From sequence record MW679410.1: a DNA stretch of 64,000 nt. One strand, 5' to 3'. This DNA comes from Escherichia phage C6. The notes beneath the pieces were generated by a model. The model did no database searches. It was given only the letters and a program-made list of their open reading frames with translations, and was not told the origin of the DNA. The position numbers were made by a program, and so were the translations under genes. Of this stretch, positions 3,566 to 38,450 are shown piece by piece (positions within the stretch are counted from its first letter, which is position 1; every line of letters begins with the position of its first letter).

Positions 3566-4584
3566 CGTGTAACCTCATTATAAAGTTGTGCAGCCATAGT
3601 CTTAAGGGCTTTAACATCGTCTTCAGTGTGGCCATCAGGAAGGGCATCGATATAATCATACATCATATCCAAGAGGGACTTAACTTCATCTTCCTCTTCA
3701 GAATCATCGATATCAACACTGTTATCTACCTTAGACACGATACGTAAAGAATGGACCACCTTTTCAAGCTCTGATTCGAACTTAGTAAGACCGTCATCAA
3801 TTTTATCGACTATAACACGAACTGCGATATTTGTAAAATCTTTGTAATCGATAGTCGCGTTAGGATAATGAATCTTACGGTGCCAACAGGTTTCATTAAT
3901 GATGAAATCCATCTTATGAGTTTCTGTGTCGAAAATCCAGAATCCGCGAGGGTCGTTCTCGTCACCAGCAGTCAGGGTCCATGGCGTACCAATATACTTA
4001 ACGTTTGCTGCATCAGAAATAGTATGGAAGTGTCCAGACCATACCTGCTTATACTTCTTAAGGAAATCAGGTTCTAAACCATGAGATTTCATTCCTTTAT
4101 AGAAATAGAAACCATTTAATTCCCAGTGACCTATACAGAAATCTGCTGTGGTATTTTTGATATGCTCCATGATATCGGTAGTGTTTTCTTCACACATCCA
4201 TGGAATCAAATCAATTTCGGTGCCATCAAAATTAACCGTAGTAGGTTTCTCAATAACCTTGATATGGTCATATTTACCCAGAACTTCTGAAGCTGCGTTC
4301 GGAGTTAGGGTATTTTTGTAGTGCATATCATGGTTGCCAACGATAGTATACATGGTAATGCCGTTGGCTTTAAGCAAATCGGAGATTTCGCGAGCGAATT
4401 CCATGCACTTGTGGGTAATTGCTTTACGAACGTCAAAGATATCACCGTACTGAATCCAGACAGTAATGCCATTTGCTTTAGAATAATTAATAGCGTCTTG
4501 GATACCTTGACGTTGGATATTTTGTACCCATACATCATCGGCCTTAACTCCAAGGTGCCAGTCACCTGTGTTTAATATTTTCAT
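3562..4584 (-). CDS. 47: Recombination endonuclease subunit gp47 (Mre11/SbcD-like nuclease)
   Basis: Start trimmed to MKILNTGDWHLG, matching the recalled T4 gp47 N-terminus; phosphoesterase motifs GDWHLG, GNHD. Confidence 0.95.
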   Translation of the reverse strand: MKILNTGDWHLGVKADDVWVQNIQRQGIQDAINYSKANGITVWIQYGDIFDVRKAITHKCMEFAREISDLLKANGITMYTIVGNHDMHYKNTLTPNAASEVLGKYDHIKVIEKPTTVNFDGTEIDLIPWMCEENTTDIMEHIKNTTADFCIGHWELNGFYFYKGMKSHGLEPDFLKKYKQVWSGHFHTISDAANVKYIGTPWTLTAGDENDPRGFWIFDTETHKMDFIINETCWHRKIHYPNATIDYKDFTNIAVRVIVDKIDDGLTKFESELEKVVHSLRIVSKVDNSVDIDDSEEEDEVKSLLDMMYDYIDALPDGHTEDDVKALKTMAAQLYNEVTR

Positions 4585-6642: not shown

Positions 6643-6905
6643 TGTAGGAATCGAGCTCCTTCCAGTGCATCATCAAGATTATCAAACTCATCGACGTAAT
6701 CAACACCGCCAACTTCGTCCTTCGCATACAACCAATACTGGTGGAATTCGTATTCAATAATAAAGTGGTCGCCCTCAATCTGGAGAACCCCATCGCCATT
6801 AAATTGAACTGCATAACCGGTAAAGCGGACATCATTCAGGAGTTCTTCTTTCATAGCAATCATTTCCAAGTTTTTATCGTAATTAGAGAGTTTTATTTTA
6901 ATCAT
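6639..6905 (-). CDS. Hypothetical acidic protein
   Basis: 88 aa; 4-nt overlaps with flanking ORFs. Confidence 0.5.
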   Translation of the reverse strand: MIKIKLSNYDKNLEMIAMKEELLNDVRFTGYAVQFNGDGVLQIEGDHFIIEYEFHQYWLYAKDEVGGVDYVDEFDNLDDALEGARFLQ

Positions 6906-7146
6906 TTAAATAATCCTCAAATTCATTTAATGTCATGCCTTCGTCCCAAGCTGTTTTAGGATTAGGCATTTTCATATAAGTGGTCTCAGAGCTTATAGGA
7001 AATATCCTGAAATCACGACGGATTACACTTAGCCTCTTAGCCGCTTTTATAACAGTTTCAATATTATCCATCATGGGTGTACGTTGGAAACCGGCTAAAG
7101 CTTTAAGGACGATTATAACCGATACACCTTCAGGCAAATTACTCAT
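6898..7146 (-). CDS. Hypothetical protein
   Basis: 82 aa; translationally coupled. Confidence 0.5.
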   Translation of the reverse strand: MSNLPEGVSVIIVLKALAGFQRTPMMDNIETVIKAAKRLSVIRRDFRIFPISSETTYMKMPNPKTAWDEGMTLNEFEDYLND

Positions 7147-7472
7147 TTTGCCGCCTTAACAATTTTAAGGTCGACGAATTTTTTCTTACGTTGGTTTTTC
7201 ATACGACGGATAGTTTTATCCGAGATTTCACCAGGGGCCCAAGCTTTAGATTCTACACCAAAGGCAGCGACATCGAATTCATCAAGGATATATTGAACCA
7301 GGATTTCACGAATACCGTTCTTACCAATTTTCTGGTCTTTAGAGTGCATGATTGGTAACAGTTCAGCAACCCATTGGTCAAGAACCTGAGGAGTTACAAA
7401 ACCGGTTTTCATCAGTTCGTTTACTTTATCGAAAGCGAAAGAGTTCAGTACGTTTTTAATAGCTTGTGACAT
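7143..7472 (-). CDS. Hypothetical protein
   Basis: Track start is TTG upstream of a promoter; trimmed to MSQAIKNV with SD GAGGAAA. Confidence 0.5.
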   Translation of the reverse strand: MSQAIKNVLNSFAFDKVNELMKTGFVTPQVLDQWVAELLPIMHSKDQKIGKNGIREILVQYILDEFDVAAFGVESKAWAPGEISDKTIRRMKNQRKKKFVDLKIVKAAK

Positions 7473-7511
7473 AATAATTTCCTCAGTTTTAAAGTTATAA
7501 TCCGTAGGACC

Positions 7512-7541
7512 ATTATACTCTGGTCCCAAGAGTTTGTAAAC
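7512..7541 (-). promoter_or_regulatory. T4 early-type sigma70 promoter (-35 GTTTAC, -10 TATAAT)
   Basis: Minus strand GTTTACAAACTCTTGGGACCAGAGTATAAT; 18-nt spacer. Confidence 0.55.
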
Positions 7542-7741
7542 TATTTTTGTGCTTTAGCACCTTTCCAACCTTCATACATCATTGCGGCGGAAATTAACAA
7601 AGCACCCGAGCAACTTGAATATTTGTGATTCCAAAACCAGTTTAGAAAAACTTCGTCATCAATACCTTGGGCCATCATATTTTCAAAGAACTGACGACGG
7701 GCTTCAGCAATACGTTGTGATAATTTAGATTCAGGATTCAT
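7541..7741 (-). CDS. Hypothetical protein (start trimmed)
   Basis: Track ORF 7541..7789 overlaps upstream ORF; internal Met chosen. Confidence 0.35.
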   Translation of the reverse strand: MNPESKLSQRIAEARRQFFENMMAQGIDDEVFLNWFWNHKYSSCSGALLISAAMMYEGWKGAKAQK

Positions 7742-7742
7742 T

Positions 7743-7874
7743 TTAAATTTTCCAATTGCCATTTTCATCAATGAATTCAATCCAGTCATTTACTGACCAC
7801 TTGGTTGTATCGCCTTTTGGAGCCACATTTAAAGTATATAACCCTTGCTTAAAAAGCATTCGTTTGATATTCAT
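7743..7874 (-). CDS. Hypothetical small protein (start trimmed)
   Basis: Track ORF 7743..7967 overlaps upstream ORF by 86 nt; internal Met chosen. Confidence 0.3.
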   Translation of the reverse strand: MNIKRMLFKQGLYTLNVAPKGDTTKWSVNDWIEFIDENGNWKI

Positions 7875-11574: not shown

Positions 11575-11811
11575 TTAAATTCCTAATATTTGTTTGAATG
11601 CTTCAGAACGGTCAAGTTCTGTTCCATATTTTTCCATGTGCTCATATTTTAAATCATACACATCAGATAGTATATTATTATACGAGCGAGTTAAAGCAGA
11701 TTTTAAAACTGAATAACTATCCGGGAATTTACCATGCTCTTTATAATAAGCTAGAGTAAGTTCGCGGACTGCCTTATCGGCAGCCTCTACATATTCTTTA
11801 CGCTTTGCCAT
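11575..11811 (-). CDS. Hypothetical protein (start trimmed to MAKRKEY)
   Basis: Track ORF has hydrophobic N-terminal extension overlapping upstream gene. Confidence 0.4.
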
Positions 11812-12139
11812 TTTCGTCTCGCTCAAATTTATGTTTACAATGGCGACATTTGTAACGAAGATTACTAGTCTGCCAATGGACCAATTGAACCTGTTCTGTG
11901 CCGCACTTAGGACAGTTAGGAACATTCTTAGAAGCTTGTTCTCGTCGTGCGACCATAGCCATTACAGCGTCCCAATTAACGACATCACCATAATCATCAC
12001 AGCCATGAATTTTACCAACCAATTCAGCTTCAACATCCGCGGCTTTAATAAATTTTAAAAGACCTTTATTAAGTCCCGCTGCGGGGGCCCATTCTGGAAA
12101 TGCAGTTTCTGCAATATCTTCAGCTAAACGTTGTTTCAT
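11798..12139 (-). CDS. Zinc-ribbon protein
   Basis: 113 aa; CPKCG...CRHC cysteine pairs. Confidence 0.5.
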
Positions 12140-13146
12140 TTCAGCAGCTCCAGAGCCTGTTCAAGACGGTCTAAACGATTGGTAGACTCTTCCCAAAGTT
12201 TCTTGGCAGCGGTATATTGCCCGGTCAGTTTTTTGTTGATAGCCAGGGCATCTTTATACGCTTTTTCTAAGGCAACGATTTCCGGTAACTTGGATTTAGT
12301 AATTGGTGTAGGGGCCATGATAGGGCTGTTCAAGTCGTTAATCAAGTCTTCTAATGTAGCAGGCTCTTTATCAGTATTCACAATTTCCTCACATTTTTCT
12401 TGGTAAATTTCAGCGTCAGTTTTTGGAACAGGGCATTTGATTTCGCGAACTGTTACTAAAGCTTCATATCCTTTCCAGCCTAAGTGGTGTTTGATTTCTT
12501 GAATCTCATATTTCTCTACTGTATCCATCAAAGCTAAAGCCTGTTCTACCATATTCAGGGTATTGTAGGAAATATCTTGGTATTTCGAAACTTCAACTTC
12601 ATCTTTAGGTTTCCAACTAGGCGACCAAATAATAGAAATAAGTACCTTCCCTTTATAGTTGTTTGTTTTAATCATGCCATTAGCCATAGGGTGGATAGTA
12701 CGGCAATCACCCTTTACAAAGGTTTTGGTTGCTGCTTTTAGAATTAATGCAGAGTTAGCCTTAAATTCGCCAGCCCAACGTTGTGGAAATAGGCCCTTAG
12801 GGTCGGTACCTTTAATTTTGACATACCCTTTTAAAACATCACCAAACCATTGGTAGCTAACAACGTGGCTAGAACCTGGATATTTCTCTTTGCCAAACTC
12901 TGAAAGGATGTCCTTATTGACCAGACGCGAAAGCAGTCGAGAACTTTTAAATGTATCTACGATATCAGTAATAAACAAACGACCCGCAATCTTTTCGATT
13001 TCATCTTTGAAACAACCAGATAGTGCTCCATCAATTTGGTCTACCCATTTATTGATATTAGAAACTATTACCACATATGGGGTTAATGGAGGGGTGTTGG
13101 CAGTGATATACGTAGTAAAGGCATTAATGTATTCAGTACGAGTCAT
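12136..13146 (-). CDS. Hypothetical protein with C-terminal coiled coil
   Basis: 336 aa; SD GAGGAGAA; early promoter directly upstream. Confidence 0.6.
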   Translation of the reverse strand: MTRTEYINAFTTYITANTPPLTPYVVIVSNINKWVDQIDGALSGCFKDEIEKIAGRLFITDIVDTFKSSRLLSRLVNKDILSEFGKEKYPGSSHVVSYQWFGDVLKGYVKIKGTDPKGLFPQRWAGEFKANSALILKAATKTFVKGDCRTIHPMANGMIKTNNYKGKVLISIIWSPSWKPKDEVEVSKYQDISYNTLNMVEQALALMDTVEKYEIQEIKHHLGWKGYEALVTVREIKCPVPKTDAEIYQEKCEEIVNTDKEPATLEDLINDLNSPIMAPTPITKSKLPEIVALEKAYKDALAINKKLTGQYTAAKKLWEESTNRLDRLEQALELLK

Positions 13147-16134: not shown

Positions 16135-17115
16135 TTATTTCAGAAGGGTAACTTCAGCGATTTCGTTCCAGTCATTTTTATCGGTGGCAATGAAGTCCGC
16201 CAGATAAAGAGCTGTACGTAATGATACGTTACGAAGACGAGATACATTAGCCTTCATCCATGCTAAAGCTTGATAAGTCTCAGCATCAGTCAGACCTCGA
16301 TTTTGCATCATATCAGTGGACAGGATAACGTCTTCAACACGAACCATAATCTCTTCGTTAGAGTGAACTCCGAGGTCTAAGTAAACTGAACGAGATACTA
16401 AAGCCTGGAGGTGTGGAGCAAGTTTAGTTCCACGCTCTAATTCACGGTCGATATCAACGTTGGTGATGAACACGATGGTGCCTTCGTATTCGAATTCTTT
16501 ATCGATGTTTTTGTCATCGAGATAAGAACTTGAAGTGCTCCAGCACACCTTACGTTTTTCACCGGTATCCAATGCTGCTTTTAACAGGTTCAGGATATCC
16601 ATATCAGAGAATACATCAACATCATCGATAAGAAGAACACTATTAGGGCCGCGGTTATTCCAAAGCTGCTCGTAAAGACCGATTCCACTAATCTTTCCGT
16701 TGATTGATTTATATTCGATAGTTTCATTTTCGTGGGCATTCTGTAATGCTTTATCCAAAGAATACGTTTTACCAATACCTGCGGCACCAGAGATGATAAG
16801 GGAACGAATTTTACCATCGATGATTCCGTTAGTCATCATGTTCATTACTTTAAAACGTTTGTTGATGCGATGTTTCATTTCTTCAGAGGATTCAGTAACA
16901 ACTGCAGGAGCTTCAGCACCTTCCATTTCAACGTCACATTTGAACACCCATACACCACGTTCAACACCATCAATCTGTACGAATACCTTGCCATCACCGA
17001 GGTGAGCTTCGGATTCATGAATTTTATTAGGGAACCAGGTTTTACCTGAACTCATGAACGTACCAGAGATTTCATTACCGCGATAGATACCTTTGTTGAT
17101 TTTGATAGTTAACAT
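16135..17115 (-). CDS. P-loop NTPase (AAA-like ATPase)
   Basis: Start trimmed to MLTIK (SD GGAGAA); Walker A GAAGIGKT and Walker B-like LLIDDVD. Confidence 0.6.
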   Translation of the reverse strand: MLTIKINKGIYRGNEISGTFMSSGKTWFPNKIHESEAHLGDGKVFVQIDGVERGVWVFKCDVEMEGAEAPAVVTESSEEMKHRINKRFKVMNMMTNGIIDGKIRSLIISGAAGIGKTYSLDKALQNAHENETIEYKSINGKISGIGLYEQLWNNRGPNSVLLIDDVDVFSDMDILNLLKAALDTGEKRKVCWSTSSSYLDDKNIDKEFEYEGTIVFITNVDIDRELERGTKLAPHLQALVSRSVYLDLGVHSNEEIMVRVEDVILSTDMMQNRGLTDAETYQALAWMKANVSRLRNVSLRTALYLADFIATDKNDWNEIAEVTLLK

Positions 17116-17152
17116 TATATTCTCCATTTCACTCAGTAGATTTGATAGGTCC

Positions 17153-17181
17153 ATAATAACATGCTCTACGAGGTTGTAAAC
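17153..17181 (-). promoter_or_regulatory. T4 early-type promoter
   Basis: Minus strand GTTTAC, 17-nt spacer, TATTAT. Confidence 0.55.
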
Positions 17182-17217: not shown

Positions 17218-17973
17218 ATGATTATATCAGCAAAAACCATCGATGAATTGAACGAGAAGGTCCAGTTAGCATTAGACGATAACTGGCATCTTTTTGGTTC
17301 AACGGTAGTCCTTCCTAATACTGTAACTGATAACAGCGAACGATTCTTTCAAACGATGTCAAAATCAGTTACCCAGATTCCAGGACCTCCTGGACAAAAA
17401 GGTGATAAAGGTGACCCCGGAAATCCTGGCGACCCGGGAGTTCAAGGTGAACCAGGAAAGTCTTCATACCAATTATGGATTGATGAAGGTAATAGTGGAA
17501 CAGTAGATGATTTTTTGACTGCAATAGCAGGAAAGAGAAGAAAATCAGAAGTGTTTTGGAGTGGTATAAACGTTCTATTAACTAATGGTGCGACTTCAAA
17601 CATAATTAGTATTTTAAAGGGGATTCCGCCGACAGCAGGGACTCTATCTCCGTTTTTTAGAACTGCTGATGATAAGATGTGGCCATATAACCAAGACAGA
17701 AGCCTAATGTTTAAACTCAACCTTATTGGTAATTTTACAGGAGTCTCGCAAGCTCGAAGTATAACATTAAATTTCGTTGGAACCAACGGAAACACCTATA
17801 CACAGAACCGTCCAGAAAATGCTACAGATATTTTGTCTTTTACGACGTTCTTTAGCATTGATAAAGATGGGGCAATGGCAACCAATGGTACAGCTATAAC
17901 TGTTACGCCAAATGGCGGCAACTTTACAATAACCTCTGCATTGTTAGTAGCTGAACAAACAGTGACTTCATAA
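17218..17973 (+). CDS. Collagen-like repeat protein, fibre-like, late-expressed
   Basis: 251 aa; strong SD AAAGGAGAA; nine G-X-Y triplets (GPPGQKGDKGDPGNPGDPGVQGEPGKS) followed by SSYQLWIDEGNSGTVDDFL; opposite strand to all neighbours. Confidence 0.7.
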   Translation: MIISAKTIDELNEKVQLALDDNWHLFGSTVVLPNTVTDNSERFFQTMSKSVTQIPGPPGQKGDKGDPGNPGDPGVQGEPGKSSYQLWIDEGNSGTVDDFLTAIAGKRRKSEVFWSGINVLLTNGATSNIISILKGIPPTAGTLSPFFRTADDKMWPYNQDRSLMFKLNLIGNFTGVSQARSITLNFVGTNGNTYTQNRPENATDILSFTTFFSIDKDGAMATNGTAITVTPNGGNFTITSALLVAEQTVTS

Positions 17974-17975
17974 AC

Positions 17976-18000
17976 AAAAAAAGGGCCATATGGCCCTTAG
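17976..18000. terminator. Palindromic hairpin terminator (strong on minus strand)
   Basis: GGGCCATATGGCCC perfect palindrome; minus strand followed by TTTTTTT, plus strand preceded by AAAAAAA. Confidence 0.6.
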
Positions 18001-18236
18001 ATTGCACTCCAAAAATTATGGAATCTTATAGTATTGATAGCCCAGTTAACAAACCTGCGAGTTTGTTTGGGAGTTGGTTTACATACATATTTGACATTGA
18101 CTCGGCGTCCGGTTTCTTTACAGACGGCTTCAAGATACCAACGTCGAGTTTTATGAGGTCTTCCATACGATAGAAAGACGTTAATTTCTTCTTTAGCGGT
18201 AATAAGCGTTGTGGTTGTCAAGGTACACCTCTTCAA
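17997..18236 (-). CDS. Hypothetical basic protein (doubtful)
   Basis: 79 aa; overlaps 3' end of upstream ORF by 44 nt; only one Met. Confidence 0.3.
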   Translation of the reverse strand: MKRCTLTTTTLITAKEEINVFLSYGRPHKTRRWYLEAVCKETGRRVNVKYVCKPTPKQTRRFVNWAINTIRFHNFWSAI

Positions 18237-19203
18237 CGAACTTGTCCCAGAACTTCATATCTACCTTATCAGGCATACCATTCTTAGCGGCCCAGATAGC
18301 ATTAGTTTCGACTTCATCAACGATAGCTTCAAGTTCGGCCTGTACATCTTTAAAAGCATGAAGCCCTTGTTTGATTTCAAGGATAAACGGTGCTGTACGT
18401 AAAGGATATTGGAGGTCGCCTGTTTGATAGATTTCCTTCAACTGATAACCAGCACGATAAGCGTGGCTCAGAGCTTTCCAGTCAATACCTTCATTAGCTT
18501 CAGCTTTACGAGCACGTTCACCGTATTCCGCATCGAGCTTATTCAGAGATTGCTTGAGCTCGATTAATGACAGAGTGGTTTGGTATTTACGTCCGAGAAC
18601 AGTATAGAACGTTTGAGGTCCGGTTTTCTCATGGTTATGGAATACCCATTCACAGAACTCATTTTCAGGGAGTCGATGTTTGATATCTTCTACCTTAGTG
18701 CGACGTTGCTTAGTCGAACCGTCTTCTTGATAATCGACCCACTGTTCAGGAATCTGGTTAACAATAGCCAGTACACCACGCAGAGCAGCCAGTCGAGAAC
18801 CCTTAACGCCATATTTAGAAGCTTGCTTACGGACGTACCCTAAATAGGCTTTCATGTTGGTTGTATAGAACAGAGAACGGTTGCCTTGGATAAATTTCCA
18901 TACATCAGGTAAATCAGATTTAACCACCATTTCAGGTGGAGTGTGAATCATATCCAGAGCAACGGTTTCGCCTTCAGCCGCTAGTTTAAAGAAATATTTC
19001 AGACTGTAAAGCTCGTGGTCAACATCATCTTTAGTGTTTTTGGAAGCGGTGTTATTCGTATTCAGGTTGGTATGGTTCATAGCCGTACCTAACAGAATAT
19101 CACGCGGATGTGGAACAAAGATTTCTTTAAAATCGACATCAGATTCCGGAGTACTTGTTCCGTAAAGATGGCTACCGAAGTAGCCTTTCATAACTGTTCT
19201 CAT
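18193..19203 (-). CDS. Pol-beta superfamily nucleotidyltransferase
   Basis: 336 aa; N-terminal GS-x9-13-DxD motif (GSHLYGTSTPESDVDF). Confidence 0.55.
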   Translation of the reverse strand: MRTVMKGYFGSHLYGTSTPESDVDFKEIFVPHPRDILLGTAMNHTNLNTNNTASKNTKDDVDHELYSLKYFFKLAAEGETVALDMIHTPPEMVVKSDLPDVWKFIQGNRSLFYTTNMKAYLGYVRKQASKYGVKGSRLAALRGVLAIVNQIPEQWVDYQEDGSTKQRRTKVEDIKHRLPENEFCEWVFHNHEKTGPQTFYTVLGRKYQTTLSLIELKQSLNKLDAEYGERARKAEANEGIDWKALSHAYRAGYQLKEIYQTGDLQYPLRTAPFILEIKQGLHAFKDVQAELEAIVDEVETNAIWAAKNGMPDKVDMKFWDKFVEEVYLDNHNAYYR

Positions 19204-19652
19204 TCTTTGTCCTCGAAGTGGATTACCGGACAGACCTTAGATTTACGAGCTTTGATATATTGAATAACGATATTTTCTTTAATTTCCTTTCCTTCACGTT
19301 TAGCTTTAATTAGTTGCCATTCCTTTTCTTCTTTACGTAAATCATACCAGGCCCATAAACTCATTATACAATACACAATACCAACGGCTACCGCTAGAAT
19401 AAGAGCCAGTGTAACCAGTCCTAAAATAAAACCCAAACCCAAACCAACAGGAGTACTCAATACAAAGAACTGCTCCAATATACCGGCACCTGCAACAGTT
19501 AAGCCGAAAATAGTACTACCTGCAAGCACAGAACACATAAAGAACACCCAAACCATTTTCCAGAAGTATGCGCATAATGAGCGCGGACGTGAATAACTGG
19601 CATAAAAACGGTCATGTAGTTTAACGTGCCAAGAGTTTGTATTGATAATCAT
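19200..19652 (-). CDS. Integral membrane protein (about 3 TM helices)
   Basis: 150 aa; hydrophobic helices then Lys/Glu-rich tail; 4-nt overlap with downstream nucleotidyltransferase. Confidence 0.55.
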   Translation of the reverse strand: MIINTNSWHVKLHDRFYASYSRPRSLCAYFWKMVWVFFMCSVLAGSTIFGLTVAGAGILEQFFVLSTPVGLGLGFILGLVTLALILAVAVGIVYCIMSLWAWYDLRKEEKEWQLIKAKREGKEIKENIVIQYIKARKSKVCPVIHFEDKE

Positions 19653-19662
19653 AATATTTTCC

Positions 19663-20223
19663 TTAAGAGTTCATAGTTGGGATAACAGAGTTCAGATAAG
19701 AGACTAAAACTTTTAGCTCGTCCTTAGTAAATACCACTTCATTTTCACCGTCGTGTCTTTGGGTCAAGGATAGCAAATCACGACCCTGATGTTGATACAC
19801 GGTTAATTCAGTATCGTAATCCAGTTCTTCTTCATCACCTTCAAAGGTTTCACTAGAACGAATCACAGCATCTTGGCCTGGGACTTTCCATTCAACTTCT
19901 GGATGGCATTCTTCCTGGAACAGTTTAAAAATACATTTAAAGAAATTAGCAGAATCACTAATGCTTAGACATTCCCCATCCGTTTCCAAATTAAACCCGT
20001 TGTCATGGTTATAAATCTGGGCCCACATATCATCGTTAATATTAAATACACCTCTAAAACTACCCTTAAGATATTCATGTTTGTCCAAAACCTTTAAATC
20101 GTAAAGTGGTTTGATATCTTGGATAGTCAGTACGATTTTATCGTCTTCTTGTGAAAGCACAATTGCATTATCAACTACTTCAGCGGTCAGGTCACCAAAC
20201 AGCCCAGATGTTTCAATAATCAT
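19663..20223 (-). CDS. Hypothetical acidic protein
   Basis: 186 aa ATG ORF. Confidence 0.55.
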   Translation of the reverse strand: MIIETSGLFGDLTAEVVDNAIVLSQEDDKIVLTIQDIKPLYDLKVLDKHEYLKGSFRGVFNINDDMWAQIYNHDNGFNLETDGECLSISDSANFFKCIFKLFQEECHPEVEWKVPGQDAVIRSSETFEGDEEELDYDTELTVYQHQGRDLLSLTQRHDGENEVVFTKDELKVLVSYLNSVIPTMNS

Positions 20224-21188: not shown

Positions 21189-21217
21189 TATAGTATCATG
21201 TTCCTAGAGGATGTAAA
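21189..21217 (-). promoter_or_regulatory. T4 early-type promoter
   Basis: Minus strand GTTTAC, 17-nt spacer, TGATACTAT; conserved GATAGGTCTATAGTATCATG block. Confidence 0.6.
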
Positions 21218-21259
21218 CACTAAAAATGAAAAAAGGTCCCACCGAAGTGAGACCTTTGA

Positions 21260-38217: not shown

Positions 38218-38293
38218 TGGCCGAGACAGTAGGGATCGAACCTACGACCCAGGACTTAGAAGGTCCTTGCTCTTCCTTCTGAGCTATGCCTCG
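38218..38293 (-). tRNA. tRNA-Arg (anticodon UCU)
   Basis: Manual cloverleaf: 7-bp acceptor, GGTTCGATCC T-arm, anticodon loop CTTCTAA, encoded CCA. Confidence 0.75.
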
Positions 38294-38297
38294 TATT

Positions 38298-38372
38298 TGG
38301 CGGACATGCATGGATTCGAACCATGGACCAATTGATTAACAGTCAACTGCTCTGCCACTGAGCTACACATCC
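38298..38372 (-). tRNA. tRNA-Asn (anticodon GUU), putative
   Basis: Manual cloverleaf: T-loop TTCGAAT, anticodon loop CTGTTAA, encoded CCA; acceptor has two G-U pairs. Confidence 0.55.
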
Positions 38373-38376
38373 AAAT

Positions 38377-38450
38377 TGGTGGCCCTGGGTGGAATCGAAC
38401 CACCATCCAGCGATTATGAGTCGCTCGCTTGACCGTCCAGCTACAGGGCC
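38377..38450 (-). tRNA. tRNA-Ile/Met (anticodon CAU)
   Basis: Manual cloverleaf: perfect 7-bp acceptor, T-loop TTCGATT, anticodon loop CTCATAA, encoded CCA; T4 tRNA-Ile also uses CAU. Confidence 0.75.

Follow-up and report, generated by a model that had tools for sequence, protein, structure and literature searches.

We analysed a 64,000-nucleotide (nt) stretch of DNA from Escherichia phage C6 (MW679410.1; hereafter, the window), in which a gene for a Pol-beta-type nucleotidyltransferase (NTase) directly follows a gene for a small membrane protein. By sequence comparison, the NTase gene is the ortholog of nrdC.11 of phage T4 and encodes a divergent RlaP-family protein (RNA-ligase-associated Pol-beta, PF10127). 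The two open reading frames (ORFs), and the features of the NTase gene referred to below, are as follows (aa, amino acids; the basis of each entry is given in brackets).

18193..19203, minus strand: nrdC.11 ortholog, RlaP-family (PF10127) Pol-beta-type nucleotidyltransferase, 336 aa, ATG start (ORF list, BLASTP, Pfam, PHROG, AlphaFold)
19210..19214, minus strand: Shine-Dalgarno sequence GAGGA of nrdC.11, within the final codons of the membrane ORF (sequence read)
19129..19176, minus strand: codons of residues 10-25, GSHLYGTSTPESDVDF, covering the predicted NTase signature G10-S11 and the metal-binding D22 and D24 (conservation, RlaP alignment)
19018..19020, minus strand: codon of D62, the probable third catalytic carboxylate, in predicted strand 61-67 (conservation, profile-profile alignment, model)
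19200..19652, minus strand: 150-aa membrane protein, ATG start, PHROG 944 'RB69 ORF104c-like' (ORF list, PHROG, hydropathy, homologs, model)

Both ORFs are real genes rather than chance reading frames, because the NTase has 2602 homologs in a collection of 5.8 billion proteins, with E-values down to 1e-224, and 71 homologs, sharing 27 invariant columns, were retrieved for the membrane ORF. At 50% identity, 3154 cluster representatives of the NTase were obtained. The 4-nt overlap reported by the initial annotation is a shared ATGA, which provides the stop codon of the membrane ORF and the start codon of the NTase. Each gene has its own Shine-Dalgarno sequence, AAGGA in the case of the membrane ORF and GAGGA in the case of the NTase.

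The initial annotation was unable to match the NTase to a known T4 gene. BLASTP aligns it with T4 NrdC.11 (NP_049709) at 81% identity over 336/336 residues without gaps; the T4 protein has the same length of 336 aa and the same catalytic motif, and its gene lies in the same position, between mobD.1 and nrdC.10. The closest database proteins, at 97-98% identity, are those of VR7/VR25-type Escherichia phages, and tblastn detects nrdC.11 in 1547 phage records. The Pfam RlaP model matches the NTase with 40.7 bits (gathering score 23), the match being limited to residues 8-134 (positions 25-142 of the 249 in the model). All the NTase homologs listed have a precomputed PF10127 match, and PHROG 388 ('nucleotidyltransferase') matches with E=5e-132. 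The identity of the NTase is already known, as it is the product of a catalogued T4 gene and belongs to a named and recently characterised family. Orthologs of nrdC.11 were matched to a nucleotidyltransferase COG, and have been annotated accordingly, since 2006 (PMC1524935), and T4 NrdC.11 was assigned to the RlaP family, in cluster 5 of a sequence similarity network, in a December 2025 preprint (PMC12776372). As nrdC.11 is found in every T-even genome and its RlaP annotation dates from 2016-2025, the finding of the gene alone adds little; what retains interest is its putative role in phage transfer RNA (tRNA) repair and the distinct architecture of its clade.

In many GenBank/UniRef records (e.g., P0011, P0026, P0040 and P0067), NrdC.11 orthologs are named 'thioredoxin', which looks like an error spread from the gene name nrdC. 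In one record, the ortholog is called 'putative HNH homing endonuclease'.

The Pol-beta-type motif noticed initially is intact. At the N-terminus of the NTase, MRTVMKGYFGSHLYGTSTPESDVDF, residues G10-S11 are followed by ten residues and then by D22-V-D24. In the conservation alignment of the NrdC.11 clade, which comprises 63 sequences sharing 32-82% identity, residues G10, S11, G15, S21, D22, D24, N56, Y131, K243, H247, R250 and P267 are invariant (63/63), and conservation reaches at least 90% at D60, D62 and D84. The clade was compared by profile-profile alignment (hhalign) with canonical RlaP, the profile of which was built from ten proteins recovered from the cellular loci described below (probability 93%, E=2.6e-7). 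NTase residues D22, D24 and D62 align with the invariant D39, D41 and D72 of canonical RlaP, and G10/S11 align with an invariant S/G. The catalytic acidic triad, which the initial annotation had left to be verified, is present in this alignment, and both the alignment and the structural model make D62 the probable third carboxylate.

The confident AlphaFold model of the NTase (predicted local distance difference test score, pLDDT, 93.5) begins with an alpha/beta NTase domain and ends in a helical C-terminal half, with a beta-rich insertion at residues 154-208. In general architecture, the succession of an NTase domain and a helical part in the model may correspond to that in the canonical RlaP proteins of Pseudomonas fluorescens and P. 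aeruginosa, which are encoded in RtcB operons, belong to the same Pfam family and are homologous over about 130 residues of the N-terminal NTase domain. The PfRlaP crystal structure has a C-terminal helical domain and a terminal helix that packs on the NTase domain. NrdC.11-clade proteins are about 80 residues longer than canonical RlaP. PDB sequence searches started from the single protein, the NrdC.11-clade profile or the canonical RlaP profile returned nothing significant, the PDB copy searched evidently being without the PfRlaP crystal structure. Foldseek comparison of the model with the PDB yielded weak NTase-core matches only (best E 5e-3). The nearest solved structural neighbour is HalB, and ANT(4') kanamycin NTase, lincosamide NTase and MNT/HEPN proteins were also matched.

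Other NTase families, including those which the initial annotation had put forward, were compared and rejected, and the NTase was placed with RlaP instead. The PolyA_pol head domain (PF01743) of CCA-adding enzymes and poly(A) polymerases has no Pfam match in the NTase at E<=0.1. The NCBIfam MntA model, representing MntA/MNT antitoxins, scores 13.1 bits against a cutoff of 60 and covers residues 8-25 only, and the HEPN gene expected in a type VII toxin-antitoxin system does not adjoin the NTase gene. As for the CD-NTase/SMODS enzymes of CBASS, there is no Pfam or PADLOC match for either protein, and no cGAS/DncV-type structure is present among the listed fold matches.

Homologs of the NrdC.11 clade are also found in cellular genomes. 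In a set comprising one genome per prokaryotic species, we identified 80 loci with full-length homologs (34-51% identity). The neighbouring genes were clustered, the clusters were identified using Pfam, and ligase and repair genes were counted within 6 kb. In 26 of the 80 loci, a canonical full-length RlaP gene (PF10127, E=5e-79) directly follows the NrdC.11-type gene. Such tandems are found in L040, L046, L067, L070, L086, L088, L090, L097, L110, L112 and others, where the canonical RlaP (255 aa) lies at about 6900..7800. Genes for RtcB are present in 12 loci, for Ro60/TROVE in 6, for a Pnkp ligase domain in 3, for a PseT-like kinase in 2 and for an Rnl1-type ligase in 1; altogether, a ligase, Ro60 or Pnkp gene is found nearby in 17/80 cellular loci. 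For instance, the gene order in a Nitrosospira contig (L070) is Ro60 - RtcB - RtcA - NrdC.11-like - RlaP - Hen1 - AAA, and a 4-kb contig (L038) carries an NrdC.11-like gene, NT5C, PNKP, one further gene and a T4-type RNA ligase gene. Because such neighbours are found at loci of the NrdC.11 type, the NrdC.11 clade itself, like canonical RlaP, shows the association with RNA ligase and repair genes from which the name RlaP derives, and this clade-specific gene context provides independent support for a role in RNA repair. T-even phages carry only the NrdC.11 type of the two RlaP types. In a distant phage-like contig (L034, 6974..7978 and 11703..12969; L035), an RlaP gene is followed by an AcrVA2-like (PF26125) gene. 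A distant homolog on a 1.8-kb contig has no informative context.

RlaP proteins have been predicted to replace nucleotides lost from RNA ends prior to ligation (PMC7824862). Two Pseudomonas RlaP enzymes add 1-2 nucleoside monophosphates to an RNA 3'-OH, with a preference for Mn2+, and do not act on DNA or protein; in vitro, the preferred substrate is the 3' end of the 5' tRNA half, and aminoacylation is partly returned to a tRNA short of a nucleotide (PMC12776372). The products of RlaP carry a 3'-OH and are fit for 5'-phosphate ligases such as T4 Rnl1. The genome of IME08 (Dhakavirus) encodes both pseT and rnlA. PseT is a polynucleotide kinase/3'-phosphatase that heals RNA ends, and Rnl1 is the sealing enzyme. 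RloC is a host anticodon nuclease that, in addition to cleaving, removes the wobble base.

The contest between T4 PseT and Rnl1, on one side, and the PrrC/RloC anticodon nucleases, on the other, is the setting that we propose for the NTase, and the occurrence of an NrdC.11-like gene near PNKP and a T4-type ligase in L038 is akin to it. Because of its orthology to nrdC.11, its family membership, its catalytic residues, the RNA-repair neighbourhoods at cellular loci and the fact that the lineage carries pseT and rnlA, we favour, with some reserve, the view that the NTase is a template-free enzyme that extends the 3'-OH of tRNA breaks by one or two nucleotides before they are re-ligated. A host anticodon nuclease such as RloC would cleave a tRNA and excise a nucleotide; PseT would heal the ends of the cleaved tRNA; the NTase would extend the 5' fragment at its 3'-OH by one or two non-templated nucleotides; and Rnl1 would seal the tRNA after this step, which would yield a usable molecule. 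The classic T4 tRNA-repair pathway, composed of PseT and Rnl1, would then probably have a third component, the putative repair enzyme NrdC.11, which could explain how T-even phages survive nucleotide-removing anticodon nucleases such as RloC that defeat simple re-ligation. Of the alternatives mentioned by the initial annotation, an enzyme adding nucleotides to RNA or tRNA is thus the favoured one.

Several observations weigh against this role. Nucleotide addition at a 3'-OH is known from distant Pseudomonas members of the family only; we infer both that the NrdC.11 clade shares this activity and what its target is in vivo. The canonical RlaP profile matches residues 6-133 of the NTase only, and hhalign found no counterpart of the C-terminal 200 residues of the NrdC.11 clade in canonical RlaP. 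This unmatched part holds the beta-rich insertion and the invariant K243, H247 and R250, so the substrate or the product could differ. The tandem arrangement of NrdC.11-type and canonical RlaP genes implies non-redundant roles, and suggests that the activity of the NrdC.11 clade is complementary, rather than identical, to that of canonical RlaP; the tandems found in RtcB, Pnkp-Hen1 and Ro60 operons likewise suggest different jobs. In T-even genomes, nrdC.11 is adjacent to neither pseT nor rnlA, and the literature searched reports no genetic link between nrdC.11 and the PseT/Rnl1 pathway. As T4 remains viable in the laboratory when nrdC.11 is deleted (PMC9825161), no phenotype ties this gene to tRNA repair.

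The membrane protein encoded upstream is labelled 'similar to RB69 ORF104c' in IME08. The initial annotation assigned three membrane helices to it. Hydropathy analysis reveals a single unbroken hydrophobic stretch at about residues 26-103, and the AlphaFold model, of moderate confidence (pLDDT 72.6), features a hairpin of two helices, 26-62 and 68-119, in which a conserved N-terminal strand (2-4) is paired with a conserved C-terminal strand (145-147). The protein is therefore modelled as probably a hairpin with two transmembrane (TM) helices and both ends in the cytoplasm, rather than as a three-helix protein. The termini (residues 1-35 and 125-147) are far more conserved than the helices; they read MIINxNSWHxKxHDxFY...RPxSLCAYFWK and QYIKARKxKVCPxIxF, and C27 and C141 are invariant. 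In the model, the pairing of the conserved termini in a small sheet suggests that they form a cytoplasmic functional surface. The membrane protein has no PADLOC match above noise, no PDB sequence match and no fold match. Pfam matches to Oleosin, PgaD, SpoIIGA and holin models fall below the gathering scores and reflect hydrophobic composition.

The pairing of an NTase with a membrane protein led the initial annotation to consider a signalling module consisting of a cyclase and a membrane effector. Such a CBASS- or Hailong-like signalling or guard module, in which a nucleotide or oligonucleotide signal made by the NTase gates the membrane protein, might serve the phage in superinfection exclusion or in the control of lysis timing, for example, and is an explanation that we regard as highly improbable. 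We compared 30 viral loci along with T4, T2 and IME08. The overlap of the membrane gene with nrdC.11 recurs unchanged in Dhakavirus/Gaprivervirus phages, T2-type phages and L015, where the two genes abut. In six loci (L005, L013, L014, L018, L023 and L024), the membrane gene is parted from nrdC.11 by 1-2 unrelated ORFs, the one in L005 being an HNH endonuclease, and it is missing from L011; in T4, its slot is occupied by the HNH homing endonuclease gene mobD and nrdC.11 is intact (see also PMC2988022). In the Aeromonas/Acinetobacter-type and still more distant loci compared (L025-L027 and L032), no membrane ORF lies directly upstream of nrdC.11, and in L031 a weak partial match to the membrane gene is located about 2 kb away. 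No membrane-gene homolog is found in the cellular loci (0/80), and a small multi-TM ORF of any kind lies directly upstream of the NTase homolog in 1/69. The membrane protein has changed far more rapidly than the NTase, as relatives share 28-40% identity in the former where they share 68-82% in the latter. Overlaps are commonplace: in a crude gene call of the window, 45/104 (43%) same-strand adjacent pairs overlap, 14 of the 104 by exactly 4 nt, and the overlap of the two genes is nothing special in this genome. The PADLOC searches, which matched neither protein, used a 2023 release that may predate Hailong, and are therefore not decisive for this system. Hailong, the features of which are taken as described in reviews, is an obligate two-gene operon, whereas the pairing seen here is dispensable. 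HalB, of about 217 aa, resembles the NTase over a generic NTase core of 133 residues (13% identity) without any signal at the sequence level; HalA forms a tetrameric channel bearing a cytoplasmic, oligonucleotide-binding crown, whereas the protein found here is a predicted 150-aa hairpin that matches neither HalA nor any effector in sequence or fold. For a pair of the Hailong kind, the NTase product would have to control the two-TM protein through its conserved cytoplasmic termini, and T4 would have lost the function when mobD invaded the locus, a course of events to which we give very little credence. The abutting arrangement in T2, RB69-type, Dhakavirus and Gaprivervirus phages is probably ancestral in enterobacterial T-even phages, and we argue that the pairing reflects inherited synteny at a junction often invaded by mobile elements, rather than a functional module. 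The membrane gene is best described as a rapidly evolving, separate accessory gene found in enterobacterial T-even phages, a dispensable neighbour rather than an obligate partner of the NTase, and the evidence gives no sign that the NTase needs the membrane protein to function.

An enzyme of RNA 3' ends directed at a target other than broken anticodon loops, such as tRNA 3'-CCA ends attacked by toxins, or RNAs tailed for decay or stability, would have the same family membership and catalytic core, and is the least unlikely of the alternatives, if still clearly less probable than tRNA repair. The Pseudomonas RlaP enzymes label rRNA-sized and full-length tRNA species and show little NTP specificity (PMC12776372), and a different RNA specificity could result from the distinct C-terminal half found in the NrdC.11 clade. 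In the distant phage-like L034/L035 contig, a CCA-adding-type enzyme (PolyA_pol + HD) is encoded 5 kb downstream of the RlaP gene. However, the neighbours of the clade are mostly ligases and end-healing enzymes (RtcB, RtcA, Pnkp/Hen1, PNKP and Rnl1), rather than enzymes of decay or CCA maturation, and the in vitro preference of the family for the 3' end of the 5' tRNA half (PMC12776372) also speaks against another RNA target. Action on a substrate other than RNA is improbable. The substrate might be a protein, as for MntA- or AMPylase-like enzymes, an aminoglycoside-like small molecule, as for ANT/KNTase-like enzymes, or DNA; the structural neighbours ANT(4') kanamycin NTase, lincosamide NTase and MNT/HEPN proteins, as well as the weak NCBIfam MntA match at residues 8-25, are in line with such an activity, and the lack of action of Pseudomonas RlaP on DNA or protein has been mentioned above.

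The junction directly upstream of nrdC.11 is an insertion hot spot. It is occupied by mobD in T4 (L001, 10430..11209) and by an HNH-type ORF of 254 aa in L005 (3237..4001); in L013, L014, L018, L023 and L024, unrelated ORFs lie just upstream of position 4001. In the window, as in T2, RB69-type and Dhakavirus phages, the directly upstream gene is the 150-aa membrane gene. Homing endonucleases may target the 5' end of nrdC.11, which is highly conserved. The order mobD.1 - slot - nrdC.11 - nrdC.10, part of the tk-nrdC early region (tk - rI - mobD.1 - nrdC.11 - nrdC.10), is common to T4 and IME08. In the window, as well as in T4, IME08 and the majority of the 30 viral loci, nrdC.11 is flanked by a mobD.1/y05I gene upstream and an nrdC.10 homolog downstream. 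The remaining features of the region are as follows.

19663..20223, minus strand: mobD.1/y05I-like gene, upstream neighbour (Pfam T4_y05I_N 2e-42, T4_y05I_C 2e-20; mobD.1 in IME08)
17997..18236, minus strand: small DUF7279 ORF, last gene of the putative transcription unit (Pfam DUF7279 3.7e-9, PHROG 8921 3e-37)
17981..17998, no strand assigned: palindromic G+C-rich hairpin AAGGGCCATATGGCCCTT followed by a T-run, between convergent genes, likely terminator of the nrdC.11 unit
21190..21217, minus strand: promoter-like TTTACA-16-TACTAT with TG, just downstream of the strong hairpin 21257..21232 (consensus match only)

Co-transcription of the two genes, as suggested by the initial annotation, is inferred from the signals found. 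Between the membrane gene and the NTase gene, there is no terminator-like or good promoter-like site, and no convincing MotA-type middle promoter or late promoter. The nearest minus-strand terminator-like hairpins are located at 21257..21232 and 17998..17981, and their positions indicate one unit of about eight small genes of the T-even early type, rather than a two-gene operon. The arrangement of these signals suggests that the membrane gene and the NTase gene belong to a single long early-type transcription unit, and the promoter-like site at 21190..21217 is a candidate start of this unit. In a scan for sigma-70-like sequences, promoter-like sites are no more numerous in the region than in shuffled sequence, and promoter calls are accordingly weak.

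Unlike in T4, nrdC.11 and nrdC.10 are separated in the window by the DUF7279 ORF and by a plus-strand ORF. The DUF7279 ORF, which is located downstream of nrdC.11 in several relatives, overlaps the 3' end of nrdC.11 by 44 nt as listed. The ATG used in relatives (MKVFLSYG...) is replaced here by ATT (..EINVFLSYG..), and the ORF opens only at a TTG located 44 nt within nrdC.11 and preceded by a poor Shine-Dalgarno sequence. This may reflect a start-codon mutation, the use of an ATT start or a decaying gene. The plus-strand ORF (17218..17973, 251 aa) is convergent and lies between the nrdC.11 unit and nrdC.10. It encodes collagen-like G-x-y repeats and an Sf6-type tail-needle-knob domain (Pfam Phage_tail_NK 7e-33). 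For a domain of the tail type, a T4-like early region is an odd location. The same ORF is found in phages RZ and MN04, and in another position in L023.

The nrdC.10 homolog (16135..17154, minus strand, 339 aa) features a P-loop, GAAGIGKT, and sub-threshold Pfam matches to AAA/STAND NTPases. Among the neighbours of nrdC.11 in T-even phages, it shows the highest conservation (71-99% identity), and it is absent from the cellular loci; the AAA gene in the repair operon of L070 is of the MoxR type and unrelated to nrdC.10. Elsewhere in the window, three clustered tRNA genes (Arg-TCT, Asn-GTT and Met-CAT) are located at 38218..38450 on the minus strand.

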